Assembly: GCA_017499595.2 (NCBI GenBank)
Contig: CM039005.1
Coordinates: 2,666,001 to 2,730,000 of the forward strand
Reading direction: 5' to 3'
Source: Psilocybe cubensis
Taxonomy: Eukaryota
Length of the DNA stretch: 64,000 nucleotides
Below are positions 10,817 through 63,980 of the stretch, piece after piece. Made by a program: the position numbers and the translations under genes. Within the stretch, counting starts at the first letter, position 1; every line of letters begins with the position of its first letter. The notes beneath the pieces are model-generated. The model had not been told where the DNA came from, made no database searches, and saw nothing but the letters and a program-made list of their open reading frames with translations.

Positions 10817-13800
10817 ATGTCCGACGAAAAAAGACCCTGCTTAGGGTGCCATAAACTCTTCGTACCAGGTCGCTCCTTGAAGCAGCATACCAACAAATGT
10901 AAAAAATATCCTGCTGCAATGAGCAAGGTCCTGAAGGGGTTCCAGGAAAACTTCAGCAGGCAGAATCAGAACAGTAATGTTGCCAGTGGTTCTTCGCACC
11001 AGGCAACCCTTAATAATGAGCCCGGGCCTATGGACGTTGATGTCCATCATGAGTATCTCGATGTGGATATGGTACCACCTCCAATGCCCCCTGCGCCTCC
11101 ACCTAAATCACCAACACCACCACCACATCCCCCGACACCACCACCTCCCATTGAACGGCCCAGAGGACTTCCTCCACGCGTTATTAGATTGCCACAGCGC
11201 TTCCGAGACGAGGTCCCACCCGAACCTCCTCTAATTATACCACCAGTCGTGGAGGAGGAACCACCTCAGCCTCAGGAACCTCCATCTGTGGAGAGTCTGT
11301 ATCGAACACCAATGAATGGCTATGGGATATTTCGAGAGTATACCTATGGTCCCCCTTCTATTACTCCTGACGAACATTTCACACTGTCATCAGTGTCCGA
11401 TTCTCCAAATATTGCCAAAGACCCAGCCGACTCTTTGAGAAAGGCGTCAGAGGGAACACCAATGGCCCTACCTTCGGATTGGTCCTTGGATTCTGAGCCA
11501 AAAGACGACAAGAGCTTGCTATTCAAAAATCGTTCTACTCAACTTATCATGTCTTGGTTTTACAACGGCCACGGTACTAAATCCTATGCTGATACCGACA
11601 AATTGATTCACCAAGTCGTACTGGACCCGGATTTTGACCCCAAGGACTTTGATTCCTCCTTTTCTACTGCTCGAGAGGCAGCGCGTCTGGACGAAATCTC
11701 CACCCAAAAAAATTCTACAGATCCTACTTTGTCAGAAGTGTGTCGACCGGAAGCTGGGTGGATCAAGGGCAGCTTTTCAATACCAGTGCCATGCGACGGT
11801 TTCATATTCGATTCGGAAGAGGAGGCTCCTCAATTTGTTGTTGAAAACGTCATGTATCGAAAACCTCTAGAAGTTATCAAACAGGCCTTTGCAGAATGCA
11901 CCTCTGAGACGTATACGACCATACCGTACAGAGAATTTTGGCGTCCCTCACCCGACGAACCACCCGAACGCTTATTCTCAGAGTCCTACGTGGCGGACAT
12001 TTTCAATGAAGAGTATGAAAAGATCAAGTCAGAGCCACGCACAGGTCCCCACAGACACCTGGAGCCCTTTGTCGTTGGTATCGGGATTTTTTCAGATTCT
12101 ACCCACCTGACCAGTTTTGGCGATGCTTCTATATGGCCGATCCTTATGTATATCCTCAACCAGTCAAAATACACCAGAGGGAAACCTAAAGAATTCGCTG
12201 CGCACCATATTGCGTATATCCCTAAAGTAAGTTTGTATTGACTGGCATGTACTATTCATATTAACGTTTGGGTCATAGCTCACAGACACTTTTCAAGATT
12301 GGCATCAGCGACAGTTTGGCAAAGCTGCGACATCTGAAATGCTCACCCATATGAGACGCGAGGTCAATACAGGCGTCTGGGGGCTATTACTTGATGAGGA
12401 TGTCAAACGAGCGTATGCTGAAGGAGAGGCCGTAGAACTGGCCGACAGAGTATGTCGAGCTATGTATCTCCGTTTTATTTTTAGTTCAAATGACTACCCC
12501 GAAAAGTAAGTCAACATTTACTCGTTATTTCGTTTGATAACTAATGTACAAGCAGAATGCTGCAGTCCTGCTGCAAGTGTCGCGGCACTTGCTTGTGTCC
12601 ACGTTGTTTAATTCAAACTATGAATGTCCCAAAGGTTGGATCAAAGATGGATATGCGAAACCGGCTCAAGCTAGCTCGCGTTGACAGCGAAACTCGTCAA
12701 TTTGACATCGAAACTGCCCGTAAAGCATTGTTCTTGGGGAAAAAGGTTAACAGCAAGGCGGTTAATGGCTTGCTGCAACAGACCTCTGCTTTTCCAACTC
12801 GGGTATATTTTTATTTCCTCATATCTACGTATTTTGTCTAAGAGTATTACATAGAACGCTTTTTCCAAGGCTTTATTTGAATATGGCTTCAACTTTTATC
12901 GGATGTTTACTGTCGACTTCATGCACGAAGTGGAACTGGGTGTCTGGAAGGCCCTATTTAGTCACCTACTCCGGATTCTTTATACCTCTAGCAACCAGAA
13001 CGCCATTGCAACTCTGAACAAAAGGTATTGTCGTGATATCTCGATTCTTACTCAAACTAACTATAGATTTAGATACCGCCAAGTCTCCCCTTTCGGCCTC
13101 ACAACTATCCGACGTTTTGCTAGGAATGCTTCAGATATGAAGAAACTGGCAGCACGGGATTTTGAAGATCTCCTTCAGGTAGGCCTCAATTGCGTGTGAT
13201 GTTTGATTTTAATTATTAATGATTCCATAATAGTGCTCTATACCAGTCTTTGAGGGCTTGTTGCCAGAACCTGCACACAATAAAATTATTCAAAACCTCT
13301 TGTTTGAAATGGCGACATGGCACGCCCTAGCCAAGCTTCGACTTCACACCGATACCACTCTGGACGAGTTGGGGAATTCGTGTACTCGGTTATGTGATCT
13401 CCTTCGTCAGTTCCAAAAGGAGGTTTGTAGTCAGTACGCCACTCGCGAGCTTCCATCAGAAACAGCCGCGAGAGGAAGAAGACAGGCAGCCAAGGCCAAA
13501 AAGGCAGCGAGTGCGGGTCTGCCAGTACCTCCGACTCAACCCAATGAACCCAAGACCCGCACGTTCAATATGCAAACGTACAAATTGCATTCCCTTCCCG
13601 ATTACGTCGATTCCATTCGCCAATTTGGCACCACTGACGGCACGAGCACTCAGATGGGCGAAAGCGAGCACAAGAGAGCGAAACTCTTCTACAAACGGGT
13701 CAAGAAAGGTGATCATATTCGAGGTATCGCCAAACACATCTACCGAGAACGTGTGGTACACCGCACTAACCGTGTCGAGATACGCAAGCTGCTGCGTGAG

Positions 13801-43048: not shown

Positions 43049-44747
43049 AAACCACACTCGCTACTTGCCCAGTCACGTGGTGTTCAGCGAGAACTACTCC
43101 AGGTCCATCTCATCAGCCTCCCATTCCTGGTAAGCAGATAAATTTCGTTCTGATGTCTTCGTCAATTCACATTTAGCAACAAACAAGTTTTCTCTGATGC
43201 ATAGACATGAAACCGCACTCGTATTTTGTATGATTCGCCATCCTTACAGTCGTCAGCACGAACCTTGCGGGAGATGTTGTCAAGGTCTATATTCATTTTA
43301 CCCCACTCGAGCTGCACCCTAAATCTAATTATAAACACAGATTCTGTAGACCGCTACCATGTTAATGTGTCCTGCTTCATGTGCCTCATCCTAGGCTTTC
43401 CAACAACACCGAGTGGTTAAATGTCCTTCGGTTGCACCTGCTTTGAACATCTTGGTGGTATCCTACCGCCTGCAGGAGGCTTCTGCAATTTCTTTTAAAG
43501 ATCCCACTAGGATCTCATAAGGGGTCTCTCCATTCTCCCCACATCCTAACCACTGCGACGTCTACTGGCATTTATTCAACAGCATCACACCCTTTCACAC
43601 ACCCGGACCGCTGTGACGTCTGATGTACACCGCACTCGTCTTCATATTTTGACCGCTGCATTTGTCCGTGGACATTGCACTCGTCCACATCCATCTTCCG
43701 TCCGTGGCACATGGCACCACGGTAGTTATTACTCTTTCAATACCTCTCCACACACCCATACCACCCCTACTACGCTGGCCTTGCAATGTCCTGACGCGAC
43801 ATTCGTTACATCTGTCCAGCAAAACACACTATGCGAACAATAGCAGTGGTACATCTGTCTCACTTTACCAATCATTGATGCTCATGGTGATCACAGGTAG
43901 AAAAGGGATCAGGAGACATGGTGGAAGAGGACACTTTACTCTTTAAACGCCCAAATTCGTAATATTACAACCGAAAACCCTTTAATGTATGCTTAGGGTC
44001 GAGATAGATACTATTGTTCATCATAAGAAATTATCAATAAATCTCTGCTAATAATATCATCGAAAACAAGAACAGTAAGATGTAGAAGTCACAGAGATCT
44101 ACGTCAAAAACGGCAGGATCGAATGCTGGTCTCTTCGAATACGCTCTGGGTGTCAACATGCCCTCCTCCATAGCAGCATAATCCTTTATGGGGTCTAGCA
44201 TGATATCGTGACTGGACTTGCAGTTCATACAGCTGCTCTTCGTATAGGCGAACCTGAGGGACACTCTAATAAATACTCGGTATCATTTCGACAAGGATGA
44301 GTGCCTTACGCACCAAGGAATCATATATAACCGGGTATCCTAGTAAAACAATCAGACGATCCGAGGCCTGTTCAATGTGGACACGTATGTTATTATAATC
44401 CAAATATCCTTCCAGACATAAGTTAATAATGCTAAAAATCGTTCATTAGTTGGGTTTACAGACAAATAAATGCAGAGCGTACACGCACGTCTAACTCGAT
44501 CTACGATGTGATTAAATTCAATATTTTCAAGCCTGGGACTGGGCAGGACTCCTCATGACTTCAATATTGCATCCGAGGCCTGTCCTTGCTGGATCCGGGT
44601 AGTTGATTTTGCATCATTTCTTTCTTTTAGGCGTCCCTCTACCTTTTCCTCGTGTTGCTGGCATGTTGACAGCATCATCATAGATATACTTCTATCTTAC
44701 CATATATCTAAACTTTATTATTTGACACATCTTGCCACAAGTGCGAC

Positions 44748-45846
44748 ATGTCGGATTCCATCCGCGACGCTCAATCGAGTCGTGCAGCCGCGGAAATGTT
44801 CCTGCTTACTCTGGCGGACGAAGGTCCCAACGTCAACAGGCAGCTATCGCCGTTGTGGGCTTCACGAGACGAATTCCAGAGGACACTAGAGCAACCGGGA
44901 CTTCAGGGGACTTTAGAAGATATCGTAATGCATGACCATGAAAACTTAGTGCCAACGTTCGACGGTGCCCCGACGTTAAAGTCATCCCATCACTCTTCGG
45001 GAAACCCTACACCTGCCCTGTCTGCAAATAATAAGAAGAGCAAATACGAACGCAGCCAATATACATCCAGAGCAATTACGATCTTGGATGATATCTCAAA
45101 ATCTGTGGAGGCTTGTTCGGCCAATCTTCAAAGGGATGCACAACTCCCAGATGCCCTGGAACACGCAAGAAAACGAATTGCGCAGCTGCATCGCAAGCTG
45201 GACAAAGTCAAGCGCAAGACCCCCTCCATTTTGGAAGAGAAGGAACGCATTCGGCGAAGACTATTAGATTTGAACGCACAACTGAACGAGATGCAAAAGG
45301 AGCGGACAACTTCTGGCAACAATTCCCCTCTTCTCTATGATTCCAGTAAGCTCTTCATCATGCATCATATGCAAATATAAGTTCATATGTGTATAACAGG
45401 CCATCATTTTGAGCCCCTCGTTGACAACCAAGATCCTCCGGCTCAGATCGCAACATTTATTGGGGTTGTATCGGCAGTGATGATAGGTGCAGGTCGGCGC
45501 ATGGCCGAGTTTATCCTCAAGACAATGCCCATTATGTTGCGCAGCGCTTTCGAAATCTCTTCGATTGAAATCGATATGCAACAGCAACATATCTTGGATC
45601 AAATACCGTCAACACTGAATACAGCCCTCTCCAAATTCAACTTATCTTCGAAAACCGTTACCTACGCGGTCTGTCCTGCCTGCCATTGCACATACCCACC
45701 CGCCTTTCCACTGGATCCAAATAAACCGGAGTATCCGTCCGTCTGCAATAATTTTCCCAATCTAGGTTCAGATCTGTGTGGGATCCCTCTTTTGGAAAGC
45801 GACGCCGATGACGGGGGGAATCCTGTTCCCATCAAAACTTTTGTCT
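44748..45846 (+). pseudogene. CACTA/EnSpm Tnp2-like transposase, 5' part (interrupted)
   Basis: Two exons with YAVCPACHCTY..C..C. It ends PVPIKTFV at the TSD. Confidence 0.85.
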
Positions 45847-46150
45847 CACATAAGACAGTTTATTTATAACGTACATTACCTAAGATTTAATAATAAGGAT
45901 ATTACGTGAGACACGGTGGATTTACTCCCGCTACCTAATTAGGAGATTAGCGTGATGTACGTGTGATTTATCCTGGCAAATCATAGCGTACATGACGTGC
46001 CATTTAGCACTAAATGGAGCCGCCGGGTGGCATGCGGGATCCGCGTGTCGGGCTGCACGGGAAAAACACGGGCCGCAAATGAACCGGACGGGTCCATCTA
46101 CATCCCGTGTATTGCAAGCAGACGGATCCGTTTTGACCCGTGTTGTGCTG
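45847..46150 (+). repeat. Left TIR (304 bp, begins CACATAAGAC)
   Basis: Reverse complement of 61212-61515; no mismatch noticed. Confidence 0.95.
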
Positions 46151-46243
46151 TCAGACGGACCCATTTGACCCGTGTCTTCCCAGAGAGGGAGGGTTATTTA
46201 TGGGGTATTGCAAGTCAATGAGCACAAGGGCTCCAAAAATAAT

Positions 46244-47673
46244 TTATTCATCTCTACCGGTATACAAATGCTTTTCCAAACTCGATTCAATCCCTGCCAG
46301 CCCAGCGTCAATTTCCTCCAGCGCATTATAAGTCAGAATCTCTGACTGCAGCTGATGCAGCCGGAGGTTCTTGAACGTTGTAACCTTTCCGTCATAACTA
46401 CTGTTGCCGACGGAACTGTCAATTATTTGGTCGTATGTTGCCCGTAGCTGCTGCTCGGTATAATTCTAAAATAGTTGTCAGTATCTAGTGCTTGGTAATA
46501 TCTGAGTACATACATATAGAAAAGGAGGGTTAAAATACGCCGTCTGATCTGTTACATTCTTGAACTCAATGTCAGACTGGGTGGGAGGCGAACCGGGGTA
46601 GCCGCCCATGGGATCAAACCTGCCGTAGGTTCGAAAATAAGGGTTTTGAAGGAGCAGGTGGCATGCTTCAGGGGGTGGAGAATAGCAACCTTGCTTCCTC
46701 TCAGAGGAAATAGCTGGACGAGAGTCCATAATGATTTTGTCGACGACAGACGTGTATGAAACATGTGCTGCCATCAACGGCGGAGCCGCATCATCCCGGA
46801 TGACAGGCATAGGTGGAGGATCCAGGGTATCTGGAATAACAGGCATAGGGGGAGGATCCAGGGTAGGTGGAATGACAGGCATAGGGGGAGGAGCTAGGTT
46901 ATTTGGAATGATTGGCATTGGCGGCGGAGCCAAGTCGTTCCGGATGACAGGCATTGGCGGCGGAGCCGTGTCGTTCCGGATGACTGGCATTGGCGGCGGA
47001 GCCAGGTTAGCTGGAATGACTGGCATAGGGGGTGGAGCCAGGCTAGCTGGAATTACTGGCATTGGCGGCGGAGCCAGGTCTTTCCGGATGACTGGCATAG
47101 GGGGCGGAGCCAGGCTAGCTGGAATTACTGGCATTGGCGGCGGAGCCAGGTCTTTCCGGATGACTGGCATAGGGGGCGGAGCCAGGTTAGCTGGAATAAC
47201 AGGCATAGGGGGTGGAGCCAGGTTAGCTGGAATTACTGGCATAGGGGGTGGAGCCAGGTTAGCTGGAATTACTGGCATTGGCGGCGGAGCCAGGTCTTTC
47301 CGGATGACTGGCATAGGGGGCGGAGCCAGGTTAGATGAAATGACTGGCATAGGGGGAGGAGCCAGGTTAGCTGGAATAACAGGCATAGGGGGTGGAGCCA
47401 GGTTATCTGGAATGACTGGCATTGGCGGCGGAGCCAGGTCATCCGTCCTTGCTGTGCGTTTGCTTTCCTTAGAGTTGCTAATATTTGAAGACATTGCTGA
47501 TGCTCAGAAATCAATTTAAATTTACTTGAATTAATGCAATTAGTCTTACATTTTATAGGTTTTACGGGAGGAGGTTCCTTCAGTTTTTCGAGAAGCCTGG
47601 TAAGATTGTTGAGACTGGTGTAGTCAATGGGGGAATTTTTGCTAGAGGTGGGAATAAAGTTGTAGGAGGACAT
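46244..47673 (-). CDS. Hypothetical protein with 18 tandem 12-aa repeats (LAPPPMPVIxxx)
   Basis: A 36-bp repeat at ~46790-47437 inside a 338-aa ORF. The last exon reads NYTEQQLRATY..TGRDE*. The start codon is uncertain. Confidence 0.6.
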
Positions 47674-47977
47674 ACAGTCCAGAAAGTGCAACTGGGTGGG
47701 CTTGTTTATATATCTCACGGAATACAATACTATCCGAGGATTCTCCATGACACGGAAATAGATTCACCCGTGTATCGAACTTAGCAACTTTTGCACAAAC
47801 TGGATCTGGTGAAGAAATCACATGACTCAGATTGTACATGTTTGTGTATGGTTTTGTTTTGCGGGACCGCTTTTTTTTAGACTTTTTTTAGACTAACTCC
47901 AACCACGATCACCACCCCACGTTCTACCGTGCCTCACCCATTAACGCGTCTTCCCCCCAAAAAAAAACGCTTTCCCA

Positions 47978-50555
47978 ATGGCCTCTTCATCTTCCACCAC
48001 CGCCACCTTCGCCCAACGCCTTGCTGACTGGGAAAAAACCTTTACAGAGTGCTACCGCAATGGCGAAAGCGCGTTCAACGCTCAGTTGGAGCAGCTCTAC
48101 AGGGACTTGGTGAGTAATCGATATCCCTTGAGCATAAGACTTACTGAACAAAAAAAATTCATCCAAATAGGTTCCACTGTGTCAAGAACACGTCAGGGAC
48201 GCGGCCAACTTCCGCCTCGTGGATTATGTCGCAAGCCCTGTCGTGTATTCATACAAGACCAGCCAGGGCAAGGACGGCAAGCAGGTAGCAAGGTTCGAGG
48301 TCGACTGGGCAAATTTGCATCATCAAGTCGCAAATTTCAAGGCATACCAGCAAGGCCAGGAGGCACAGAGGAAGAGGAGGGAGGAGGAAGAGCAAGAGAA
48401 GAGGAGGGAGAAGGAGGAGCAAGAGGAGGAGGAGAGGCAGAGGGTGGAGGAGAGGAGGAAGAGGGAGGTGAGGAGGAAGAGGGAGGAGAAGAAGAAGAGG
48501 GAGGAGGAAGAGGAGAGGCAGAGGGAGGAGGAGGAGGAGAGGCAGAGGGAGGAGGAGAGGAGGAAGAGGGAGGAAGAGAAGCAGAAGGTGGAGGAGAGGA
48601 GGAAGGAGGAGAGGAGGAAGAGGGAGCAGGAGAGGAAGACCAGGGAGCAGGAGAGGCAGAAGGCGGAGGAGAGGAGGAAGAGGGAGCAGGAGCAGGAGCA
48701 GGAGACAGACGAGGAGAGGAACAAGGAGGAGACGGAGAAGAGACGGGCCGAGAAGGGCAAGGGCAAGGCAGTCGAACCCCCGGTGGAAGACGGACCCGTG
48801 ACAGACGCCCACAAAGACAAGGGCAAACGGAAAGCGGCGGACCCCGTGGAGTCCATTCAGTTGGCTCCAGCGGACTACAGGGGCCCACGGACAAGGAAGG
48901 GGGAAATCATTCCCCACATCACCGCCTCCAACATGCCTGGTCACCCAGCGTACAGGGAGAAGCTGGAAAGATTGGCGAAGTCCAAGCAGGGGAAGTTCAA
49001 GAGCAAAGCAATCATAGGAAGCCACACGGACGAAGACGCGGACGCGGACGTCGACGAGGACGACGAAGGCGATGACCAAGAGGCCCCGCCTACCACCCCC
49101 ACCCGGAAGATGCTCACCCGGTCTGCAAAGAAGGACGCCAACCAGGACAATATCCCCCCCATCAGGAAGGCGCGGTCGAGATCCGAGAAAGCGCGCCAGG
49201 TGCCGGAGGGGATGGTGGATATGGTGGAAAGGTGCACGGGATGCACCAAATTCAAGGTGCCGTGCCATGTCAAGGGAGAGACAGGCACTGAGCCTCTCGT
49301 CCCCATAAAGCACCAATCTTGCGAGTCTTGCAAGTCTCGCAAGATTCACTGCAGTTTCTACCCGGGACGTTTCTACCCGGGACGCAACACTGTCGCCGGG
49401 CAATTCAACCTCTCGACGCCGCTGGGAAGTTACGGGGAGGTGTTGAAGTTGGAGGAGGGAGAGGATGTTCCGGCGAAGGGGAAGGCCGGGGAAGGGTCGT
49501 TCCCCGAGGATGTGGGAGAGCTGCTTGTGCAGCTGTTTGAGCGACAAGGCCGACTGATGGAACGGATGGATGGCCTTTCCGCGTCCATGACGGCGATAAA
49601 CGCACGGATTGCAACGTTCGCCGAGACAAACTTGGCGGTGGAGAAGAGGATGAAGACCGTCGAGGACAGCTTCCAAGAGCTGAAGGCCGAGTGGACCACG
49701 GCAAAAGAACAAGTGGCAGGAAACACTTCGCTTTCCGTCACGATGTTCAACAACATCAAGCAGGCGATCCAGGACGTTCAGTACGTGGTCGGGGTTTTGC
49801 TGGAGCAGGATGAACAAAGGAATCCCGCCCCCAAACAGGCAGCAGAACCCTCCAAGACGGAGGTCGAACAAGAATCGGGTCCGTCGCGGACCCGTGAACC
49901 CACCTCTGCGCCACAATCCCCCAGCCCACCACCACCGCCAGCACCCCTCCCTTCCCCACCTCCACCTCCAGCAGCACCCATTCTCCCTTCCCCTCCTCCA
50001 CCACCGCCAGCACCTGTCCTCCCTTCCCCACCCCCACCTCCACCCGCACCCGTCTTCCCTGCCGTGTCTGCGCCACCAACAGAGCTATTCTTGCCCGGTT
50101 CGACTCCAGAAGCGCCTTCGCCCCCCCCAGCTGGCCGACCCTCGCTCCCACCGGTACCACCCGTCCTTTCCCTATCTCCACCACCCCCTCTCCCAGCTCC
50201 ACGTCCTCGAAGTTCGACGTCAAAGGCCGCACCGTTGTCAAAGGGTGCACCATCGTCAAAGGCCGCGCCATCGTCATCGTCAAAGGCCGGCCCATCCTCA
50301 AAGGCTAAGCCATTGTCAAAGGCTAAGCCATCCTCCAAGGCTGGGCCATCCGGGAATGGACACTCATCGGAGTTGTCTGATCCCTCGGACAGCGACGAGG
50401 TTGAAATTGTGGAGGAGGATGTTGAGATCGTGGCGTCCACGCTGCCCGCGTCGAACATAGCCACAAAGACAAGGGCTGGACGGAAGCGAAAGGCGGAAAC
50501 GACTCTGGCTGAAGCATCGCGCTCGCCCAAAAAACCCAAGGCCCAAAAAAAGTAG
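47978..50555 (+). CDS. Zn(II)2Cys6-like cluster protein with an E/R/K-rich helix, a coiled coil and a Pro-rich tail
   Basis: Two exons (intron 48110-48170). C-x2-C-x6-C-x18-C-x2-C-x6-C (CTGCTKFKVPC..CESCKSRKIHC) and a basic NLS-like end. Confidence 0.75.
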
Positions 50556-50820
50556 TGTATTTCAAATCTTTGTAACTTTTTTTGGTCTCCTTTTTTGCCT
50601 TGTCTCATAGATTGCATTGTACAATTTTTAATATTTGGACTGTATATAGTTTTTACTCTCATGTGCTCATCTGTTTTATATCTCTCCCAAAAAGTAGCAC
50701 TTGATGATTTTTAATGAACCCGCTTTCTGTTTTGATTTTGTGTGAAAACATGTTTGAGAAACATCAAGATAAGAATAAAAAGCATCACATTCAATAGGTA
50801 TCATGAATCTACTTCAACAG

Positions 50821-53131
50821 CTAGGCTTTCAAAGTTTTTTTTCTTTGTCTTTTACCTGCTACAGCAAGCAGACTTGCTTCCTGAAGTGCTAAGGCATCCG
50901 AAGTCACATTCCTGCGGGCCCGTGTTTCATCCGTATCTGGACTTGTTACTGTCTCCACAAAGGCATCACAAGTCACGTCCCTGCCGGCCCGTGTATTATC
51001 CGTGTCTTGGGTTGTTCCTGTTTGGACTCCATCTTCTTCCACTGTGTCAAGTGGATCTGAGTAGGGCTTTGTTCTTTTCCTAGGTTGAATCCTTCTAGTT
51101 GGTTTTGGCTTAACTGGGGGGGGTACAGAACTCTCTTCATCGGGTCCGTCCATTTCCGCCGTTCCGACATATGGCTTTGTTCTTTTTCTTGGCATAATCT
51201 TTCTAGCTGGCTTGGGAGGCGCCTCCTCAACCTCTGGAGTTGGGCTGGATGATGGATTGACAATTGTTGGGCTGGATCTACTTGGTAGAGAGGGTGGCTC
51301 GCTAGATCTTGAAGGTGCGTCGGTAGGAGTCTCATCCGTCTCTGGCGTGACTTCAAATCTGGCAGTAGTGCGTGGCATCGCGGATGCCGGACTGCCCCGT
51401 CCATTATCAAACTCTGACAGATTGGATGATTCAGAGTCGCTTGAAGATTGGGTTTGAAGTCGTATAGCTTTTTGCCTCAGGCGACGTTTGGTTATTGCTG
51501 CAGGAGGTGGAGGTATCGGGTGGGCTTCTAGGCCGTCAAACAAGTTGGACGGATAGAGAGGTTCCATAATATCATAGCCATTTCCAAAAACCTTTGAAAA
51601 TTTAAAGGGGATGTCTCCTTGGGCTTGACGGTCCCTCCATAGCTTGAGAATTGCAGAGGTTGACTCCAGGCGGAGCCGGCTCGGATCCGTCACGGGGATT
51701 GAACTTGGCCAATACTCTGGATCAATCATTTCTGCAGAACGCCTTTCAAGAGCATCCCAAGGAACACTTGAACCAGGCCTGTCCTTGGCTAAAGCTGTAT
51801 ACATAGTTAGCAAGTTTGTTGAGGACATAGACAAATTACACACCATAAACCTTGTTCATGTAAATTCTAATAATTGACTTTTGTGCATAAGCGACTTCTC
51901 TCCCAGTTGAGCCATAGATAGGACTAGGTACTATTGGAAATCCATTGCTGCTAAACTTGAGGGATTTTTCATGAAACGATGCATCTGGCAGTGCTGGATT
52001 GGCCACACCCTTCTCTATTTCTGAAATGTGGACGAGGTATTGAACAAACGCTCTGCGAAAAGCGGCCAACTCGGATGGAAAGAGTTGCCCAAAGGAAGGA
52101 ATTCTGACATCGTCGAGTGCTAGATCGCTTGTCTGGGTCCTTCAATGCCCATCAGTCAACATTAATACGGGCCAAATTATTCCGCCGCGAATGCTTACGG
52201 CGGAAACTTTATCCGCCGTAGGGTGTTTACGGCGGATAAAGTTTCCGCCGTAAGCATTCACGGCGGAACTTGTTCATGCCGTGTTTAACACTTACATTGA
52301 GTATTTGATTTTACCCTCAATATCATAATGCCCCTCAAAGGTAATGGACCTCATACCCATTCTCTGCCACTTAAGTTTCTCCATTTGTCGAAGTATTTTT
52401 CTGCCTTGCCTGGCAGCAGTCCTGCAGATGTCAGATTGACGGCGGAAACAAGTTCCACCGACTCACTTTGCCTTCATTGATTTTGAAACACCTTTCTTAT
52501 TCCATTCCTCGAGGATCTCCATGAACCTGTCCCGCTCCTCCTGAGTCAATCTGGCCTCAACCTGCTTACGTCCTTGTTGATAAAACTTCATCCAATCTTT
52601 ACTTCCACGAGCAGCATTCCCTGATAGAAGCGCAACCTCGGAGTCAATCTCTGCCGACTTCTCCTCACGGAATACCGTCTGAAAGGTTATACGGGAGTTC
52701 AATCCTTCCAATTTTACACCAATTCGATTTGACGCATGGTTTCTAAACCAATTAAATATTCGCTATTGTGATGGTTTATGTGTGTAACAAAATTTTCAAA
52801 GAAACAACGAGCTCACATGCTTCTTCACCTTCCATTCTTTGTGTAGTTGCTTATCTTCCTTCCTAGCACGTCTAGAGTATCTGTGATCCCATGTAGCTTG
52901 CAGCTCAGGTATGACAGTGTTCTGTATGTAGTCTGCTTTGGATGACTTTGATGTATCTTTGTAGGGCTGTACATGCTTTTTCAACACGCGCATTTCCTTT
53001 GTTGTCCAAATATTTGATTCTTCCGGCGGAAAGTCACCCTCCGCCGTCTGTCCGTTTCTGGGTCCGTTGTGGGTTGTGGCATTTGCGGTAGAAGGAAGCG
53101 GATCCGCGTCGGGGGATGCATTGGTGGGCAT
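50821..53131 (-). CDS. Multi-exon KDZ-associated protein with homeo-like (IFNWFRNH) and HMG-like helical segments
   Basis: Exons at 52796-53131, ~52463-52760, ~52297-52420, 51836-52140 and 50821-51780. Contains WMKFYQQGRKQVEARLTQEERDRFMEILEEWN. Confidence 0.6.
52180..52268. repeat. Intronic palindrome with 41-bp arms (1 mismatch) and a 7-nt loop
   Basis: ttccgccgcgaatgcttacggcggaaactttatccgccgta-gggtgtt-tacggcggataaagtttccgccgtaagcattcacggcggaa. Confidence 0.95.
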
Positions 53132-54010
53132 AATTGCAGTGATGTAACAAGTAGCTTATCGATGAGTATCTGTGTGATCTGGTCAAATCTCACGTTATAC
53201 GGAGATAAAATAAGCTTCCGATCATACTAAATAAATGATGTGATGTCATATTTTTCCCAATCAGGTAATCCCGCTTCATCGTCGGCCACGATGATCAAAG
53301 CATGCTGGTCGCTGTCACATACATTGACCTCATGATTTTGCAATAGTTCCCTCTGCATTCAATCAATAAACATGGAATTTTGTAAACATTTAGCGCTTTA
53401 TATAAAGATAATTTTACAAGGTTTTAAATTCTTGTCAGATGGCTGTAAAGATACAGAAACACAAAATGCAAATTCACGTCTTCTCACCCAAAACTTGTGA
53501 AACCCAAAACGGCAGTCATCTCAGAGACCATGAGAGGTATTCAAATGCATAATTTTTTTCAAAAAATATAATGATCCCAGTGAGCTCATTTTGACACATT
53601 TTCTAGTATATTGAGAATATCTCCTTAAATACGAGGATTCACATTCTACAAAAAATGTCATTCGGTAGCTATTAAAAATATCTTTCATATGATATACGCC
53701 GGAGGAATGAGGGGCCAGCCAGTGAAAAGATATTTCAAAAACACTCCAAAGTGTGGTTCTGAAAGGGTCGTTCTGCATCATATTGTACATTTATGATGGG
53801 ATCACGTCCATTTTGTGCATCTCTGGATTAAGTTTTGTTCATAACATTTCACTCACTCATCCAAATATGCTGCAAGATAAGTCATATGAAAGCTATTTTT
53901 CTCCTCTTTAAAACGGCATAATTGAGGGAAATTTATCTACAGAAATAAACATGTTATACTACATTTAGATCTGCGCTCACAGGCTGTCAGACTCTTTGTT
54001 TCCAACATCC

Positions 54011-57000
54011 ATGGGCTTCAAGAAAGTACCTGATAGGGGATCGGATGAGGAGTTTCCCAATGTTCGGGAGGCCTCCTGGTCTAGTGGGGCCAAGAAACGA
54101 AAGAGAGGGCGGCCGAGGATCCACAAACTTCCTGCAGAATCATCATCAACAAACCTCCCTCAAACAACGACTTACTCTTTCCAAAACCATGAACACAACA
54201 TTCTGGAAGAAGAAATACCTCATTATCCGGGAGATCTAACTGATCAGCAGGTACTTGATAACCTGAGACAGCTAGATGACGACAGAACGGGAGGAAAGGT
54301 ATGTTTTAACATGTTTTCAGTAGAATGATCAGGATGACTTTACCTATCCAGTCTCAAAATGATTACCTGAGGGAATGGCTCCCGAAACGAGAGGTGTATC
54401 TTGGAACAATGATTGGAGGAGAAGCCCCGGATCCGGATCTGAATGGACAGTGTCAGCAATGTCAAGGAATGTCTGGAGTGTGGAGATGTTGCCAATGCTT
54501 TGGCTCTAGAATTTTGTGTTCTGAATGCCTGCGAAGAAACCATCAATTTACACCTTTCCACCGCGTTGAGAAGTGGACGGGTCTATATTTCCGTCCGGGA
54601 GCTCTGTGGGAAGTGGGTGTCAAGTTGTATTTGGGTCATAATGGGAAACGTTGTCCTTATCCCACGGATCCGAGCCACCTAGGATGGGACGGCGGAAACA
54701 ATTCATCCGGGAGTCATGGGCACGGCGGAAACAATTCGCCCGTCTTTGAAGATGAACACGGATTGGACCTGGATCCGCTTCCTGCGAGCAATGACCAAGA
54801 ATCCTTTACGGCTCAGCTTCTGGCGGACCCGGAGGTACCCCATTTGGTTGAGCTGGACGATGGAGACGATGAAGACGATGATCTATTCGAGGAAGTCGAT
54901 ACAACCTATCTGGACCAACCTCGTCCAAAGGCAGCAGACAACAATGGAATTCCTTTCAAGGCAATTGTGCACACCTCCGGAGTCCATTATCTGCCCGTGC
55001 GAACATGCACATGCCGGTCCGTCCGCCTTCCGTCTATCGATTTACAGTATCTGGAGATGGGATTATTTGCAGCCAGCTTTGAAAACGTTCAAACTGTGTT
55101 CACAGTTGAGGTCCTTGAGGACTTTCGGATGGACAACCTCGAGTGCAAAACGTCGGCTTATCAGTATTACCAAAAGTTGCGAAGACTGACTTCGCCAGCG
55201 TTTCCAAAAAAGGTGCTGAACCGCTATCGTGAATTGAGAAGGCTTAGTAGAGAATACAGGGACCTTGTCCTGAGACGACAATACGGAGAAGGGCATACAA
55301 GAGAAGCGGTGGTCCCTTACTATCGTCATTGCCATGATTCATCACCAGAGAGGATGGGTATTAATGTATCTGATCCAATTGACGGCGGATCTGATAGTCC
55401 GTCTCAAGAAGTCGGAATGTCAACGGACCCGTCTCTGGGACACGGCGGATTAGATGGTCCGCCTGTACCACAAATGACGCGGACCGAGGATCATCCCGAA
55501 GTTGAAGATAGGAGAGGGAAGTTGGCCTTATTCTGCCCCGCCTGTCCACAGCCTGGAATAAACCTACCTGATACCTGGATTGATGATGCTGATAGGCAAG
55601 TTTTAGTTATTCTTCAAGGGTGACTGCAATTAACAGCAAGTAGCAATCTGTACATACGTAGTTATGTTGCAGATGGTAATTTCAAAGCAGATCACCTCAA
55701 TCAGAAAAACGAGGGAGACGATGTTTGGTTGAGCGTTGGAGAAGGATACATGACTGCTCCGGGCCCTTACAAGGAGCACATTAAGGAAGCAATTTCTCTT
55801 GCTCCACGTTATAAACGGGTGCGTTATCTACCATGATTTATCTTTCACGGCGGATGCTTACGCTCCGTGTCAAAATCTTCTACGGCGGATGCTTACTTTC
55901 CGTGTCAAAAAATATCAGGAACAAACATGTCATAACTACCACGCCCAGAAAGCTGAAAACAGAGTCAGCCCGGGTAAGAGAGTACGTGGAATTGGGGCAC
56001 ACGCTTGCGCTAGGCACGGATGCTTCTGTCCATCCAGCGTTGTCGATTTTGACAAAGGTGAAAAGCAGATGCACATGGATTGGTCTTTGACTCAGGCCAG
56101 GGAAACTACCAACACACAGGGAATCACAAAACATTTGGAAATCTACGATATAAACTGTCAATATTGCGTTAACTTGGCAAGGCGTCTCTCAGAGTCCACA
56201 AAAATGCATTGGCCACCTTCTGTTAAAATGATTTTTGCAATTGGTTTATTTCACGTCCACGGGCACAAGACGGAATGTCTTTACAACTACGCATCCACCT
56301 ATGTCCCGGGTGTGGGAATCATTGACGGAGAAATCCTGGAGCCGTTGTGGTCCGTGTTAAATGACACATCCCGGAGTACACGTTCCGCTACCACTGCCCA
56401 TCGAGCAGAGGTTTTGGACGACCACATGGGGGATTCCAACTGGAAGAAGACCATTAATATGGCTGCAACAATTGCTGCAAAGTTCAAACGGGCACGGGAA
56501 CAGTCCGGAATCACAGACCGATTTTATAGGGGTATCACGGATCAACAAGATTCCGGGCTCATCAACACTTGGGAAGATGAAATTTCAAAAGCAGAAGCGG
56601 ACCGAGAACAAGGTGTGGCCGACGCTGTTGGCAAGGTAATGGCAAGCAAAGTGAAAACGGCTGCTGGACGCCAAGAAATTGAATTGCATCTTTCAAATAT
56701 GGAACTTACATCTAATGGTGCTACTGGAAAGGCAGCATGGATATCATCCGGCTTAAAACTGGAGCAAGCGCAGTACGATTATTTCAATTGCATCCTACAG
56801 AATTTAACATGTTTTTAGATTGGAGCTCAGGGACCATGTCAGAAAGCTCGGAAAGCATCCTTCCACCGCGCAGAAACTTGACTTGGTCAATAAACGTCGC
56901 TCCATGCGGACCCGCGTTGAAGCCTTCTGTCGATCCGCTATGACCTTCATGGGCGAAGATGTCTTGGAGGATATTCAAGGGGACATCGCTCCCATACTTG

Positions 57001-57894
57001 ACTATGAAGTCAGTGACAACGACGATCCTGATCTTGGAAATGTCAACATTACCCGCGCGGATCCGGAACGACAGCCGCTTCCGTTTCCCTCCGCCGTCAA
57101 ACAAGATTTCTTTGACGGCCTTGACGCGGGAACAAACCTCATTTTAAAAGGGCTTCGCAAACTTGAACTTCAAATAAGACATGGCCACGCAGAGGACTGT
57201 CTGGAAGCGGTCCGGTCAGCCTTGATCCAGCTTTCTTGGCAGTATAAATATCAGGTTCGGACCGCCGACTCCGTCTATATGGGGACTCGTGCTTGGGATG
57301 GCGTCAAGCTTTTGAATGCTTCCTGGAAATTGCACCGGCGACTCTACAACACAAACCGTCAGAAGATGATCTATTTATCTGCTGGCGTGCGAGACGAGGA
57401 TAATATTCGGAAACAATATCCCATTCTGCAAGTCCATGATTGCAAGCATAGTAATGCCGTGTCGGATCCGAACATTCGCGGAGGAAGCTCGGACCGTCTA
57501 AGTTGGATTTGGAGATCCCGTCAGGGCCTGGACAATGATAATCAATTATACGTTAATGAGTGTGAGTACTGCTATTTGTATTTCTAATTTTTTTCTCAAG
57601 GGCTTCTTAGTCTTTAGGCTAAACTGGCTCCGCGCGCGAGCTCAGAGGAATAGATGGCAAGAGGAGCTGGCCTTGACAAAAAAGGAAATGGAATGGACTG
57701 TCAGATTTTATGTGTATATGGCAAAGACATGGCGTGCACGGCATGATTTTGTTCCTGACAGGTTAGTTGGTCACAGGGCAAATGCTCAAAAGCAGATTGC
57801 CATGTGGAATGATCTGGGGCGGGCCGCGGATAAGGTCTTCCGTCAAATTAACCCGGAGTATCCGTCCGTGTGGAGATTTATAATTACAGATTAA
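54011..57894 (+). CDS. KDZ transposase with a CxC2 cysteine cluster (multi-exon)
   Basis: CxC2-like HQFTPFHRVEKW..VHTSGVH..CTC..GLFAAS..TVFT. KDZ core: CPACPQPG, ADGNFK, CARHG, GEKQ, YDINCQY, FHVHGH, DGEILEPLWS. Confidence 0.93.
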
Positions 57895-57938
57895 CCAGTT
57901 CTTTGAACATTCTTGTTGTATCTCATCTTGTTGAATTC

Positions 57939-59563
57939 ATGCACTTACCGCGGCTTTTTAAACCTCCTGTCGAGGACGAACATCATCTCCTTACCTATGA
58001 TGAGCGACGTGCTCTGGCCAAAGTTCATGTCCATATTTGTGGTGCACGGATCCGTGCCGGATACCGTTTGTTCATTGCAAACGGAGACTCTGTTTCCTCC
58101 GTGCGTCGCCAAAAATGGATGTATTTGCTTGACCTAGAGGTGGTAAGACAGTAATTTTGAACTATTATATCTTGCATTGAGAACTGCTCGATAGGCTATA
58201 CTGCTGAGAGTACTCGGATACTGCTATGTCAATGGATTCCAAGTCGATATTCCATTTTTTATATCAGAAATTCTCAATCAGAGCGTACATGCCGTTTTGA
58301 ACCGAACTCCCCACCATCGAGCTGTTCTATTTGAATCTCTAAATCAAAGCTGGTCAGCATGGGAAGATGATGAAATTTTAAATCAGACCAAGAGCTGGGG
58401 ATATTGGTGGAGGGACGGATTTGCTGAAGGCGATGAGTGGCAAGTTGCCTTTGTTACCGTTGAATCGCAAGCAAGAGAATTTTGGAACAAGGTATGTTTT
58501 TTTATTGCTGTGGATTATATCTGATTTGCGTCCTTCCCACCAGGTGGTTCTGCCTGAATACCAACAAGAGGTACTCCGGCTAAACAATCAGAGGAAAGAA
58601 GCTAAGGAGGGCGCAAGTTCATCCACCTCTGGGCCTCCAAGAAATCAAGAAAACAATCCCAAGGGCAAGGGAAAGGCGGCTGAACGGACATCCGTCCCCA
58701 CCTCGGGGAAGCACGGATCCGCGTTGACGGGAAAGCACGGCTCCGCGTTTTCACCGCCCACGGGGAAACCCAATCCGCCGACCCGTGTTGCAAACACGCG
58801 GGATGAAACATCCCCAATTGCAATTTCTGACCACAGACCGCCCTACTGTCCCCGCTGCGGTCAGCCTATCCTAACGGGCGTAATGAGGGAGTTGGCTCAC
58901 CTGCGCCGGAATGTGGCGGACAAAATGAAGAATGCCCATAAAGCAGTGACTACTTCTTCGGCCGCCTTGGGCAGATATTCTGTATTGGAGAAGATGTGGA
59001 TTGACTCTAAGGAGCTCCCGTTCTCTAACGGCAAGGGGCTTTCAGCCAAATACAAATTTCAGCATCCCGTTCACCCTTCTCCTGACAGTTGGGGCGCTAT
59101 AACGGCTCAAGCCCGGTCCTTCGAGGTCTCAAAGCTCAAAGTCGCTTCATTTTACATCAACGACATTTTTTATTCTTTTATTGCCGTCAAGGAACTACCT
59201 TTTCATCCACTCTGGTATCATTCGCCACCCTCCAACACTGCAAATATTCATCTCCCAACAGATACTCTGCCTACGCCCGGTTCCGTCAGCCCTCCGTCAA
59301 ATGCACACACCAGCAATGCCTTCCTTTTTAACGCAAGGTCAAGACCTGTTTTCCCGGGAGAAGAGGATGATATTGATAGTACGTCTGATACCACTGAATC
59401 CTCTACACCAGCTACGTTTTTAGAGCATCTCGCACAGGACTTTGAAGAGGAGGCGGATGAGGAGTCTTCCGCCGGTGATACGACGGAGGAGTCAGATGCT
59501 TCCGGTAACTCAGAAGAGCTTAGCGAGGACGTGTCGGAAACACCCTGGGATGAGGAATCTTAG
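57939..59563 (+). CDS. Hypothetical multi-exon protein (CPRC motif, acidic tail)
   Basis: Successive ORFs at 57870, 58297 and 58421 are linked by GT..AG introns. Confidence 0.6.
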
Positions 59564-59711
59564 TTGCCCACCTCTCGCACAGGACATCGAAGAGGAGGCG
59601 GATGATGCCTTTTCCGCCGGTAATACGACGGCGGAGTCCAATGATTCCGGTAACCTTGGAAGAGCTCAGCGCGGACGCGTCGGAAACACCCTGGGACAGA
59701 GAATTCTGGTT
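59428..59711. repeat. Imperfect tandem duplication, 2 x ~145 bp
   Basis: tctcgcacaggac..gaagaggaggcggatga..ggaaacaccctggga starts at 59428 and again at 59573. Confidence 0.85.
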
Positions 59712-59790
59712 GTGCTGTAGCTTTCGTACTGTTTTGGTTTGGAAATATAAAAAAATCTTCCCCAAACCCAACTTCCAAGTCAAAAACTGA

Positions 59791-61070
59791 TCATATTTCA
59801 AAATCAAAAGCGTTGGTGGCCGGTAAATTTGCAAAAAGATCGTACGTAGTAGACCATCCCGCCTCTTGGACTCCCAGCTCTTCAAATACAGTCCTACGCA
59901 TGTAATAGACTATGACTGCCCTGTCTCCATCGCACACCGCGCCGTGTTGAAGCAACCTGCCGGTAATTGCAACAAGGGTCATGGGATCATACTTGTACCG
60001 AAGTCCAAGGCCCGGAAGCTCAAGCCGTCCGTGTTCACCCTTCCCAAGCGGCATCAAAAAATCGTACCATGAGTAGCACGACCCATTATCCCGATGGTAT
60101 GGTGTATCTCGGTTGCTGATCACGGTCATGACTCCAAAGGGCGAACTCCAAATTGTGAGAATTTGCTTCAATATTTCAGCCTTATGGACAAGCTCCGGTT
60201 CCGCAGCAAGCCGTTGAAGAAATTTCATTCCCGCCCGGTACTGCTCGGGATGTATAATGCTCAAGATGGCTCCCAGCAAAGCCGAAGATGTCGTCGTGTC
60301 TCGTATAAACTCCTGTCCAATTGGATTACACAAGTCCAAGGAGACCTCAAGCGGGTTGGACGTCTGAGGAAAATATGAGGCAGTATAATAATTAGCATAC
60401 AAGTTTCTCACCTCATGGCCTTGCTGAAACCATGCCGGGGAGAAGTTAATATTTCCAGGTTGAACCCAACCTGGCTCATGTCGAAAGTAACTGTCATTGA
60501 CCCTCCAGCTTGTGGCCAAAGGTACCGCCTTGTGAATCATTGTTTCAATATCCCGTAATGAATTCCACACACTCTCCTGTTACTCTTTAGAAAGCATAAT
60601 ATATGAATTAATTGGTCTGTTTCTAAAACTCACCACCCTTGTCTCTGACAAAATACCTGGCAGGTACCACACCAATATGTTGCCTGCACTATCGACCACA
60701 GTTCCGGGCAGGGTTTGGTACTGTAACGCGGAATGCACCGGAGAAAACTTGTTTTTCAGGCGAGCCTCAACGGTAAAATTCTGACCCGTGCAACGTGCAC
60801 TGAGATGAGTCAAATATTCTTCTGCATCCCACGTCGTATATTCTGCCATTCACACATTATTTAATCTCAATTTTCAAAGCTTATTGATTGCATACCTTGA
60901 TTTTCAAATGCCTGCAAAATCACCTCCACAGCTAGATTGCACTCAAACATGGTCTCAGCACTGAAGTTTTCCCGGATTTGATTAGGCAGTTCTGCATGCC
61001 AAAGACGACTAGCTATTTGTGCCTTCATGTAGTTTGAGAGGGATTGGGTTAGCTCAAAGGCATAATCCAT
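59791..61070 (-). CDS. TET/JBP-family 2OG-Fe(II) dioxygenase (4 exons)
   Basis: VVDSAGNILVWYLPG, SPAWFQQGH, NRDTPYHRD (HxD), LLQHGA (distal His) and GDRAVIVYYMR (2OG-binding Arg). This is the fungal TET/JBP pattern. Confidence 0.9.
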
Positions 61071-61211
61071 GCTATCAGGGTATGTGGAAAGGAATGTGCT
61101 GCCAGTATAATCTATACACCTTATTACATATATTAACGGTCATCCGATGTATGATTCTTCAAGGCGGATATTTGTCGGAATACAGAAGCGGGTGGATGAA
61201 TGGACCCGTCT

Positions 61212-61515
61212 CAGCACAACACGGGTCAAAACGGATCCGTCTGCTTGCAATACACGGGATGTAGATGGACCCGTCCGGTTCATTTGCGGCCCGTGTTTTT
61301 CCCGTGCAGCCCGACACGCGGATCCCGCATGCCACCCGGCGGCTCCATTTAGTGCTAAATGGCACGTCATGTACGCTATGATTTGCCAGGATAAATCACA
61401 CGTACATCACGCTAATCTCCTAATTAGGTAGCGGGAGTAAATCCACCGTGTCTCACGTAATATCCTTATTATTAAATCTTAGGTAATGTACGTTATAAAT
61501 AAACTGTCTTATGTG
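61212..61515 (-). repeat. Right TIR (304 bp)
   Basis: Ends ...gtcttatgtg and is followed by the TSD tttgtct. Confidence 0.95.
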
Positions 61516-63980
61516 TTTGTCTACCATTCTTTCCACGATTACCTTGCTGAACTCCTCTCGAACAAAGAGCTGGAGACAATGATGGATGAGGCCTGTGACA
61601 AATTTGTCAAATCTATCAACGAAATGGACACGGTAGAGAAAATGGCTGCCCACCCTGAATTTACTTCAGATGTTTTCGAGGCAGAGTTTGTGCGGACATT
61701 TGAAGGGCCAGAGGTGGGTAAGCTTTTTCTGGATAGACCTGAAGGTCAAGGACGCTACCTTTTTGCTTTCAATTTCGATTTTTTCACTGCTGAGCGAAAA
61801 ACGATCCGAGGAGCATCCGCATCTTGCGGAATTCTGTCCGCCGCCTGCTTGAACCTTCCTCTTCATCTGCGGTACAAACCAGAAAATATGTATATCGCAG
61901 GTGTAATACCCGGACCATTGGAGCCTCATGAAACAGAACTCAATCACTACCTACGCATCCTTGTTGACGACCTTTTAGTCTCTTGGAAGGATGGTGTCCG
62001 CTTCTCACGCACTGCTAACCATCCTAATGGAAAGACAACTCAATGTGGTCTTGCAATCAGTGTAAACGATCTTGTGGCGGCCAGACAAATTAGCCAGTGT
62101 GCGAGTCACATAAGCAATCACTTTTGTTCACGTTGCAAGGTTTTCGGACGCGCCAGTCTGGGCAGGGTCGACATCCAGGAAAAAGATTGGGCACCCAAAG
62201 AAAATAACACTCTACGAGAGCATGCCGAGAAATGGAAAGCCGCGACCAGCAAAAAGGATAGGGATGATCTTTTCACAAAAAATGGGATGCGTTGGTCTGA
62301 GCTATGGCGCCTGCCGTACTGGGATCAGGCGAATATGCTGGTCGTTGATTCGATGCATTGTCTTTTGGAAGGACTGGCTCAGTTTCATTTTAGGAAAGTA
62401 CTGAAGCTCCAAGATGTCGATGCTCTCTCCAGAGAGGTGGGCGAAGACGCGTTTGAGCTGGAACCATCGATGCCCAATGAAGCATATATCGAAGCCCAGG
62501 AATTAACTGATAATGACCTACAACACATCTCTCAGATCTACAAACTTCTTGTTTCTCCCATCCTTGTGGTCGAGCTAGCGTCTTTGCCCACCATATCATT
62601 GGATCTTAATACACGTCTTCAAAGAAAGAACCTCAAGTCGTTACGCTTTGTTGCTGAAGAACTGTACAACGCAGAAGGACTAACTTTAACGGTTGCAGCC
62701 ACTAATAGAAAGGCCGAGTACTGTGATGCTCTGGTCCAATGGGTATGATCCAGCATTCTTTTTATGTCTCTTCACTGGCGCTCATTTGAAGCTTCAGCGC
62801 ATGGCAAAACCACTTGTCTCAGAGAATGTAAAAGTAAAATTTGGGACTGTGAATGTCATGAAGCATATTCGAGACGTTATTCGAGACACGGAGGTCCCAG
62901 CGTGGCTTCCTTCTGTCCCTCACAACTTTGGTCAAGCTGCAGCGGGATCGTTAAAAGCAGATGAGTGGCGTACCATGAGCACAATCTACCTTCCACTTGC
63001 CCTCATTGCTATGTGGGGCGAAGGATCGCAACAGACAAACACATCAACAGCAGCAGTAACGCGTCAAGTCCTTGATCATACTATGCACCTAGTCTCGGCA
63101 ATTAATATAGCATGCATGAGAACAATGACGAAGAAACGTATGGACGCCTACCTCTTTTTTATAACTTCGTGGCTTGAAAGCCTTATTATTCTCCATCCGG
63201 AGGTCAGACCTAGACCAAATTGTCATATGGCGATTCACATATATGAATTCCTGGTCCTATTTGGTCCTGTGCGATCGTGGTGGTGTTTTCCATTTGAAAC
63301 ATTGATTGGTCAATTGCAAAGGCTTCCGCATAATCACAAATTTGGTATGTACTTTTTTGCTATTTAATTTCATGATATTAACATTCATCGCTTGGTAGGT
63401 CAGCTTGAGGCTACAATGCTGTCCTCTCATACAAAATCAACGAGGTTGAGACGTTGGCTTAACCGGGCTGATTGTCCTCCTGCTCTCAAGGAATGCCAGA
63501 AAGCATTCAATGAATGTTTTTCAGATGCTACGTCGCTGCGTTCCATTGAAAAGCAAGTTCCCACATCTGCATTTATCCCCGTCCCAAGCCAATTAAAACA
63601 TCTGATTTCTGATCATGAAGTTGCATTTCGCGCTCGCCATAACTTTGATGATACGATATACACGCGAGCTGAGACCCACATTGGAAATAGTCTGATCTTG
63701 TACCACCATAATGGCAACTTAACCTCCTCTCCGATCCCGGCGTCGATTCAGTATATTGTGGTGAACAAGAAGAACATGGTTACTTACATCGTCCGACGAC
63801 AATTATCTGCACCAACGACAACCGTTGATCCTTACAGGCATTATCCGTATTTCCCTGCCAAAGTATATTCAAATGAACTGTCGGCTGAATTTACTCTCGT
63901 CCAACCAGAATGGGTAATGTCGCATTATGCTCGGATAAGATTGGACGACGAAAGAGCAGTGGTTCTCACTCTTGCTCGTG
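61516..63980 (+). pseudogene. CACTA/EnSpm Tnp2-like transposase, 3' part (may continue beyond the window)
   Basis: FVYHSFHDYLAELL, FNFDFF, CLNLP..RYKPEN..GVIPGP, NDLVAAR, RWSELWRLPYWD..VDSMH, LKADEWR, HMAIH, FGPVRSWWCFPFE. Confidence 0.88.

Follow-up and report, generated by a model that had tools for sequence, protein, structure and literature searches.

A TET-carrying KDZ transposon, probably of the Kyakuja type, with an exact empty allele in Psilocybe cubensis

We analyzed a 64,000-nucleotide stretch of the Psilocybe cubensis genome (assembly GCA_017499595.2, contig CM039005.1, positions 2,666,001 to 2,730,000), hereafter the window, in whose coordinates all positions are given. From 45847 to 61515 lies an element of 15,669 bp, bounded by terminal inverted repeats (TIRs) and a target-site duplication (TSD), which carries a KDZ transposase, a TET/JBP dioxygenase and four further genes or candidate genes, A to D. 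Gene models and introns are based on homology and splice signals, and the principal features are the following.

45381..45846, plus strand: left half of an interrupted host open reading frame (ORF), whose right half is at 61523-62748
45840..45846, no strand: left TSD copy, TTTGTCT, where the empty-site joint has 7 letters fitting either side
45847..46150, plus strand: left TIR, 304 nt, tip CACATAAGAC, with loose read ends at 45846/45847
46104-46175: subterminal repeats of ~33 nt, in the inner part of the left TIR
50821..53131, minus strand: gene C, five exons at about 53131-52817, 52762-52480, 52420-52298, 52138-51845 and 51795-50824, plus the stop codon
54011..57894, plus strand: CxC2-KDZ transposase, about 1195 amino acids without frame breaks, in six exons at approximately 54011-54298, 54352-55620, 55663-55818, 55919-56775, 56819-57560 and 57613-57891, plus the stop codon
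59791..61070, minus strand: TET/JBP dioxygenase, CcTet-like, exons 61070-60896, 60842-60634, 60576-60412 and 60363-59794, plus the stop codon
61212..61515, minus strand: right TIR, 304 nt, with loose read ends at 61515 and a contig of run X1 spanning 61487-62800
61516..61522, no strand: right TSD copy, TTTGTCT

The ends of the element are sharply defined. An inverted-repeat scan finds the two TIR arms to be 100% complementary over 304 nt, and by BLASTN their similarity extends to 319 nt at 98.7%. The tips of the element are CACATAAGAC...GTCTTATGTG, its termini CACATAAG...CTTATGTG have the CA..TG form of Kyakuja transposons, and the duplication that abuts both tips has the 7-bp length of Kyakuja TSDs. 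BLASTN found no second copy of the element inside the 64-kb window. In-silico excision of the element together with one TSD copy (15,676 bp) yields a 563-codon open frame across the junction. Given that the two halves of this ORF rejoin, and that the right half has a weak Transposase_21 match (1.5e-5, 24.8 bits, under the cut-off of 28.6), we conclude that the element is probably nested in the gene of an older transposon. Transposase_21, to which this insertion target has its weak similarity, is of the CACTA/EnSpm type. The window is transposon-rich elsewhere too; for instance, an ORF at 10643-12241 (+) matches the Plavaka transposase PF18759 at 6.4e-11.

Reads from four public runs (X1, X5, X9 and X14) were compared over window positions 44500-62800. 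Three of the four contain an empty-site joint, from 45839 to 61516, that skips 15,676 bp and has 7 letters fitting either side: in X5 as one contig of 5,504 nt (depth 19.9), in X9 as one contig of 5,689 nt (depth 15.1), and in X14 as 6 raw reads. Run X1 differs: a single-copy contig there runs across the right junction in its filled state (61487-62800), and no contig of the empty site is found. The insertion is therefore polymorphic, and its empty allele is exact. These results bear out the original prediction, made from the sequence alone, which had placed mismatch-free 304-bp TIRs, exact ends and the TTTGTCT duplication at these same coordinates and had named the empty site as a check.

The transposase is recognized by profile in both of its domains, with CxC2 (PF18803) on the ORF at 54310-55623 (1.5e-21, 77 bits, cut-off 27) and KDZ (PF18758) on the ORF at 55754-56818 (1.2e-37, 130.1 bits, cut-off 26.6). 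The stop codon that separates these two ORFs falls within a 42-nt GT..AG intron. CxC2 is reportedly linked to Kyakuja, a link attributed to Iyer 2014. All three motifs with candidate catalytic acids (ADGNFK, YDINC and DGEILE) are found, and in a quick MAFFT alignment of 94 KDZ homologs their acidic residues are kept in most members: 85 sequences retain the Asp of ADGNFK, 88 that of YDINC, 89 the Glu of DGE and 91 the Glu of ILE. These homologs are the proteins that matched at E<=0.001 among 3,381 candidates; the closest are hypothetical proteins of P. cubensis, one of which (P0001, JR316_0009328) matches the window transposase exon for exon, and others include proteins of Laccaria bicolor and Coprinopsis cinerea at 34-41% identity.

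Close to the right TIR lies the dioxygenase gene, which encodes a protein of 373 amino acids if an in-frame 48-nt intron is spliced. Its ORF at 59791-60579 (-) matches Tet_JBP (PF12851) at 9.5e-19 (67.7 bits, cut-off 34.9). The closest relative of solved structure is CcTet of C. cinerea (PDB 7vpn and 8jkk), with which the predicted enzyme is colinear over residues 79-146 (E 0.002) and 200-419 (E 1.5e-27) of 7vpn. Both share the HRD form of the HxD motif, the second His, the Arg that binds 2-oxoglutarate, and Asp337; the element's predicted enzyme differs in having Ser for Gly331 and in a first exon of ~58 residues that has no detectable match in the PDB. This combination (HxD...H plus Arg, Asp337, and Gly or Ser at 331) is that of the AG, or CcTet-like, class of TETs. 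In the text of Kojima 2025, AG-type enzymes are described as keeping Asp337 with Gly or Ser at 331, Ser being the residue in Kyakuja TETs, and as being carried in Agaricomycetes by Kyakuja and Zisupton (PMC12730594). As judged from its sequence, then, the element-borne TET is open and CcTet-like. An intact CxC2-KDZ transposase with D..D..E candidates and a dioxygenase with HxD..H..R beside the right TIR had both been predicted, with CxC2, KDZ and Tet_JBP profile searches as the proposed check, and all three profiles score above their Pfam cut-offs.

We next consider how often the element occurs and how its copies differ. In public reads, depth inside the element is 13-31x that of the flanks. 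In three runs assembled as contigs, flank depth is 15-24 and depth within the element ~220-400, although contig depth is not true copy number, so that we put family size no more precisely than at around a dozen or more. The raw reads of X14 give ~11-22 in the flanks (both directions summed) and ~500 within the element. At the tips, X14 has 240+197 loose read ends at 45846/45847 and 170 at 61515, in both places with a consensus agreement of 0.39 beyond the tip; such low agreement indicates many different flanks. High internal depth, divergent flanks at the tips and the empty site together indicate a multi-copy family that has moved recently, in line with the earlier suggestion of a recently mobile unit. 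In protein collections, the 90% cluster of the transposase has 39 members, and the 15 that are listed carry 15 different locus tags. X14 also contains derivatives with internal deletions, with joints from 47627 to 54532 (10 reads), from 56831 to 56874 (33 reads) and from 60170 to 61168 (27 reads), the last deletion taking out a portion of TET. An intron-3 length variant of the transposase gene, with 39 extra nt, accounts for about half of the family depth (joint from 55912 to 55899, 25 letters between). Variation inside the TIRs is unassignable to one arm, as reads match both, and we draw no inference from it.

The dioxygenase gene lies between the two TIRs and is covered as deeply as the rest of the multi-copy element, and hence travels with it. 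We propose, at a probability of roughly 0.87, that the element is an autonomous cut-and-paste KDZ transposon of the Kyakuja type, that it bears a TET gene and belongs to a multi-copy Psilocybe family, and that it recently landed in the ORF of an older transposon. In the mechanism that we envisage, a DDE-type KDZ transposase would bind the TIRs and the subterminal repeats, excise the element and integrate it with a 7-bp stagger. The dioxygenase would oxidize 5-methylcytosine (5mC), and possibly N6-methyladenine as CcTet does, on element DNA and so counter methylation-based silencing, and the divergently transcribed gene C would encode a DNA-binding cofactor.

Several observations, beside the caution on contig depth given above, weigh against this proposal. 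The Kyakuja assignment, made by the KDZ and CxC2 domains, the 7-bp TSD, the CA..TG termini and the TET type, is probable rather than certain. Direct bridging in X1 covers the right junction only, leaving the left junction unbridged. No element-spanning TIRs were found in 10 long related loci from metagenomes, whose contigs may be truncated. The Laccaria families Kyakuja-1_LB and Kyakuja-2_LB are described as having no TIRs, in contrast to the perfect 304-nt TIRs here (PMC12730594, main text); it is chiefly in its long perfect TIRs that the element departs structurally from those families. Finally, the present copy differs privately from nearly all other copies of its family. Among 41 variant places examined out of 555, 10 have T or A in the present copy and C or G in nearly all others, and 7 of these 10 are CpG-to-TpG/CpA changes, the typical trace of 5mC deamination. 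Changes of this type are those that methylated DNA would accumulate, so that any protection by the TET is incomplete. The CpG observed/expected ratio is 0.80 in the element and 0.95 in the left flank, which is no strong depletion. Places of private variation include 46405, 46687, 49305, 52306, 59386, 59512, 59640 and 60753.

The same private CpG-type changes bear on a different reading, in which the family is active and the present copy a passive member that is mobilized in trans or already silenced, its open ORFs reflecting youth. About a dozen or more near-identical copies exist, and we regard this reading as possible, if somewhat doubtful, since the transposase, gene C and TET are all without a frame break, the TIRs are perfect, and the insertion is missing from three of the four runs.

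A scan of metagenomes with a KDZ alignment gave 80 related loci, which form 63 groups at 95% nucleotide identity, and these were searched by tblastn with the window ORFs and family proteins. Gene C was counted only where 2.5 kb or more of sequence precede the transposase (the other 58 loci have too little flank); all 22 such loci (all 18 groups) have it upstream, 21 of them (17 groups) on the strand opposite to the transposase. TET, counted only where there are at least 3 kb downstream of the transposase (65 loci left uncounted), lies on that side in 12 of 15 loci (11 of 14 groups) and upstream in one more. None of the 80 loci has a tblastn match to gene A, B or D. The window and the related loci share the order C(-), transposase(+), TET(-). 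Because C, transposase and TET recur together and A, B and D are absent from all 80 loci, the conserved unit consists of three genes, not six. Some related metagenome contigs contain long internal inverted repeats that do not bound the KDZ unit (L061:12035-16069, 224 nt at 88%; L018:2657-7147, 491 nt at 91%).

This linkage also bears on whether the TET mainly serves the host as a domesticated enzyme. In the text of Kojima 2025, maps of oxidized methylcytosine in Coprinopsis and Laccaria cover many transposon types, suggesting untargeted action (PMC12730594), which speaks in favor of this reading. We give this idea little chance, as the gene lies within the TIRs at a depth equal to that of the rest of the element and is transposase-linked in 11 of the 14 non-redundant related loci.

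Gene C, the third member of the conserved unit, has an unbroken frame with GT..AG exon junctions. HMMER finds 103 representative proteins related to it at E<=0.001, 3 of them at <=1e-10, and the ten that were looked up come from Psilocybe, Agrocybe, Ephemerocybe, Dentipellis and Lactarius and from metagenome and read-assembly sources; the longer relatives are colinear over exons 1-4. An AlphaFold2 model of exon 2 of gene C has a mean confidence score (pLDDT) of 75 and no match in the PDB by Foldseek at E<=0.001. In a VIA search against representatives, the top rows for the same model are mostly HMG boxes, all with Z <8 (BAF57 with Z 5.3, a root-mean-square deviation of 2.7 and 59 aligned residues; Abf2p and CIC 5.1; SSRP1, LEF1, Sox and TFAM 4.5-4.8), Z values of 4.5-5.3 being in a range common for helical models. 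By sequence, 4 of 12 members of the gene C family match Pfam HMG_box_2 (best 2e-4), and the window's own exon is unmatched. The last exon opens with a conserved domain, and of 40 family members 17 match the GTF2I-like repeat PF02946 there at E<=1 (best 3.3e-6). The PF02946 cut-off is passed by P0100 (27.8 bits against 27), the sole one to do so among the 10 members with scores seen, and the C-terminal domain of the window's gene C, which has no direct PF02946 match, is tied to the repeat via P0100 only (E 1.3e-9). Against PDB sequences the profile of this C-terminal domain gives E values of 0.2-8 only, with GTF2I repeats at 0.7-1.4.

Based on these similarities, gene C probably encodes a DNA-binding partner, with an HMG-box-like and a GTF2I-like domain. 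DNA transposons that rely on two proteins are known, such as PIF/Harbinger with its Myb/SANT partner, and HMGB1 assists RAG and Sleeping Beauty. Gene C would be analogous to these as a separate DNA-binding or DNA-bending protein beside a DDE transposase; it differs from the PIF/Harbinger partner in having predicted HMG-box-like and GTF2I-like domains rather than Myb/SANT. A literature search found no description of gene C or of a third conserved Kyakuja gene, with Iyer 2014 and supplements outside its scope, and none that joins GTF2I to KDZ or Kyakuja, or relevantly to a fungal transposase. We tentatively suggest that Kyakuja elements have a conserved three-gene core in which this HMG-like/GTF2I-like protein is an obligatory partner, either as a cofactor that bends or recognizes DNA for the transposase or as a guide that brings the otherwise untargeted TET to element DNA; the idea is speculative, and gene C is the one part of the element that could add to knowledge of how KDZ elements work.

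For the guide version of this idea, one candidate target is the set of ACGGCGGA palindromes, for which the element shows an enrichment of about 30-fold. We counted 17 occurrences of the 8-mer ACGGCGGA inside the element and a single one in the remainder of the window, against 1.16 expected for the window as a whole. The corresponding 7-mer and its complement reach 1.9 occurrences per kb within the element, as against 0.06 outside it in the window and 0.24 across the 80 related loci (1.2 in one of these, L034). The motif often forms TCCGCCG..CGGCGGA palindromes, in introns and coding sequence alike, and its occurrences are concentrated at 54689-55449 and in two further places:

52180..52268, no strand: palindromic cluster of ACGGCGGA/TCCGCCGT, within a gene C intron
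55840..55910, plus strand: 35-nt tandem repeat carrying ACGGCGGA, in intron 3 of the transposase gene

The remaining genes of the element are as follows.

46481..47494, minus strand: gene A candidate, a single ORF with ~18 tandem 12-residue proline-rich units (36-nt period)
47978..50555, plus strand: gene B, 838 amino acids, two exons at 47978-48112 and 48174-50552, plus the stop codon
57895..59563, plus strand: gene D candidate, ORFs at 57852-58154, 58195-58524 and 58382-59563

The coding status of gene A is uncertain. It is largely a coding minisatellite (46800-47439, 36-nt period, 17.8 copies) whose repeat number varies among family copies, with joints back by 36, 72 or 288 nt, and its exact ORF sequence is absent from the protein collection searched. 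Gene B is better supported, as its spliced product has 0 mismatches over 838 residues to an annotated hypothetical protein (P0225, JR316_0009326). It combines an E/R/K-rich helix and a coiled coil with two CX2CX6C motifs, and its tails are proline-rich and basic. It too contains a minisatellite, at 48367-48720, which is GAG-rich with an 18/39-nt period and varies in repeat number among copies. The six cysteines of gene B, arranged as CX2CX6C-X18-CX2CX6C, are invariant in 10 paralogs. Fungal Zn2Cys6 proteins are recognized by the pattern CX2CX6C-X(5-12)-CX2CX(6-8)C with a PF00172 match, and against this profile (Zn_clus) gene B reaches 15.3 bits where the cut-off is 21, with only half of the profile covered. 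In an AlphaFold2 model the cysteine region is uninformative (pLDDT ~30) and only the helix at 114-198 is confident.

Gene D is probably separate from the transposase, as judged from sequence comparison. Public P. cubensis annotation often joins the transposase to gene D ORFs across 57560-58500, and among 15 listed P. cubensis transposase models 4 end at 57891, 10 continue into gene D and 1 is truncated. KDZ proteins from other genera stop where the ORF at 57502-57894 stops, and we therefore treat gene D as separate. Pieces of genes A, B, C and D gave no Pfam match above cut-off in searches at E<=10. Two Atlas searches were made with gene D, the first without a usable match and the second with weak KDZ-context rows at 0.88-0.90 that share few features.

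The original prediction had counted four further genes besides the transposase and TET and had proposed that the full set forms a self-contained anti-silencing module. As for the four genes, B and C match annotated or conserved proteins, and the ORFs of A and D are unsupported outside the element family. As for the module, a joint action of all six genes has a slighter chance still than a host-serving TET. All six ORF sets do lie within the TIRs and are open in this copy, and the order of B followed by transposase recurs in P. cubensis, where their locus tags are 2 apart in five pairs and 3 apart in one. However, in addition to the lack of A, B and D from the related loci, the relatives of gene B among 4,977 candidates form 3 clusters that are all from P. 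cubensis, A and D have neither a Pfam match nor, for D, a usable Atlas match or, for A, an exact ORF in the protein collection, A is a variable minisatellite, and nothing ties A, B or D to DNA modification. The claim of a six-gene module thus gives way to the conserved set of C, transposase and TET, and A, B and D are lineage-specific additions.

Least likely of all, in our view, is that the element is Dileera or Zisupton rather than Kyakuja. Its long TIRs would fit this view, such TIRs having been reported for Zisupton and for KDZ1 of Cryptococcus, a Dileera-clade element with 236 bp (PMC11588098, in part of its text), and not for the Laccaria Kyakuja families. Against it stand the TSD of 7 rather than 8 bp, an N-terminal CxC2 in place of the CxC1 of the Cryptococcus Dileera elements or the CxC4+SWIM of Zisupton (PMC11588098), and a TET of the CcTet-like AG type that Kyakuja and Zisupton bear in Agaricomycetes (PMC12730594).

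For a Kyakuja-type transposon, the present locus offers a clean, bounded, TET-carrying copy together with a natural empty allele and deletion derivatives, one of them cut in its TET gene, and hence a comparison by which possible self-protection from methylation can be judged. For Psilocybe genetics, it offers a large DNA transposon whose position varies from strain to strain. We found no literature that combines Psilocybe with KDZ, Kyakuja or Plavaka, or Kyakuja with CxC2, and Psilocybe has 0 occurrences in the main text of Kojima 2025, Table S1 being outside our scope (PMC12730594).

Known KDZ systems resemble the element to different degrees. KDZ TIR motifs have been catalogued in Marasmius (PMC8290104, in part of its text). 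In Cryptococcus neoformans, KDZ1, KDZ2 and KDZ3 are likewise giant elements (9-11 kb) with TIRs of 236-241 bp, TSDs and extra genes of no known role, and their mobility in the laboratory has been demonstrated; they differ in belonging to the Dileera clade, in carrying CxC1 and in having 8-bp TSDs, and no TET/JBP gene is reported for them in the parts of those articles drawn on here (PMC11588098; PMC12810828). Closest are the TET-carrying Kyakuja elements of Agaricomycotina (Kyakuja-1_LB and Kyakuja-2_LB of Laccaria, and others), which have in common with the present one a KDZ transposase and an AG-type TET in one unit, a 7-bp TSD, 5'-CA..TG-3' termini, an Agaricales host, and Ser and Asp at 331 and 337. 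Kojima 2025 reports, in its main text, complete Kyakuja elements with a TET gene from throughout Agaricomycotina, their TSDs 7 bp long and their termini CA..TG, and proposes that their TETs counter methylation-based silencing (PMC12730594). Since TET-carrying Kyakuja elements with a 7-bp TSD and the anti-silencing idea are thus already published, the Psilocybe element adds a further member to a known type rather than a new kind.

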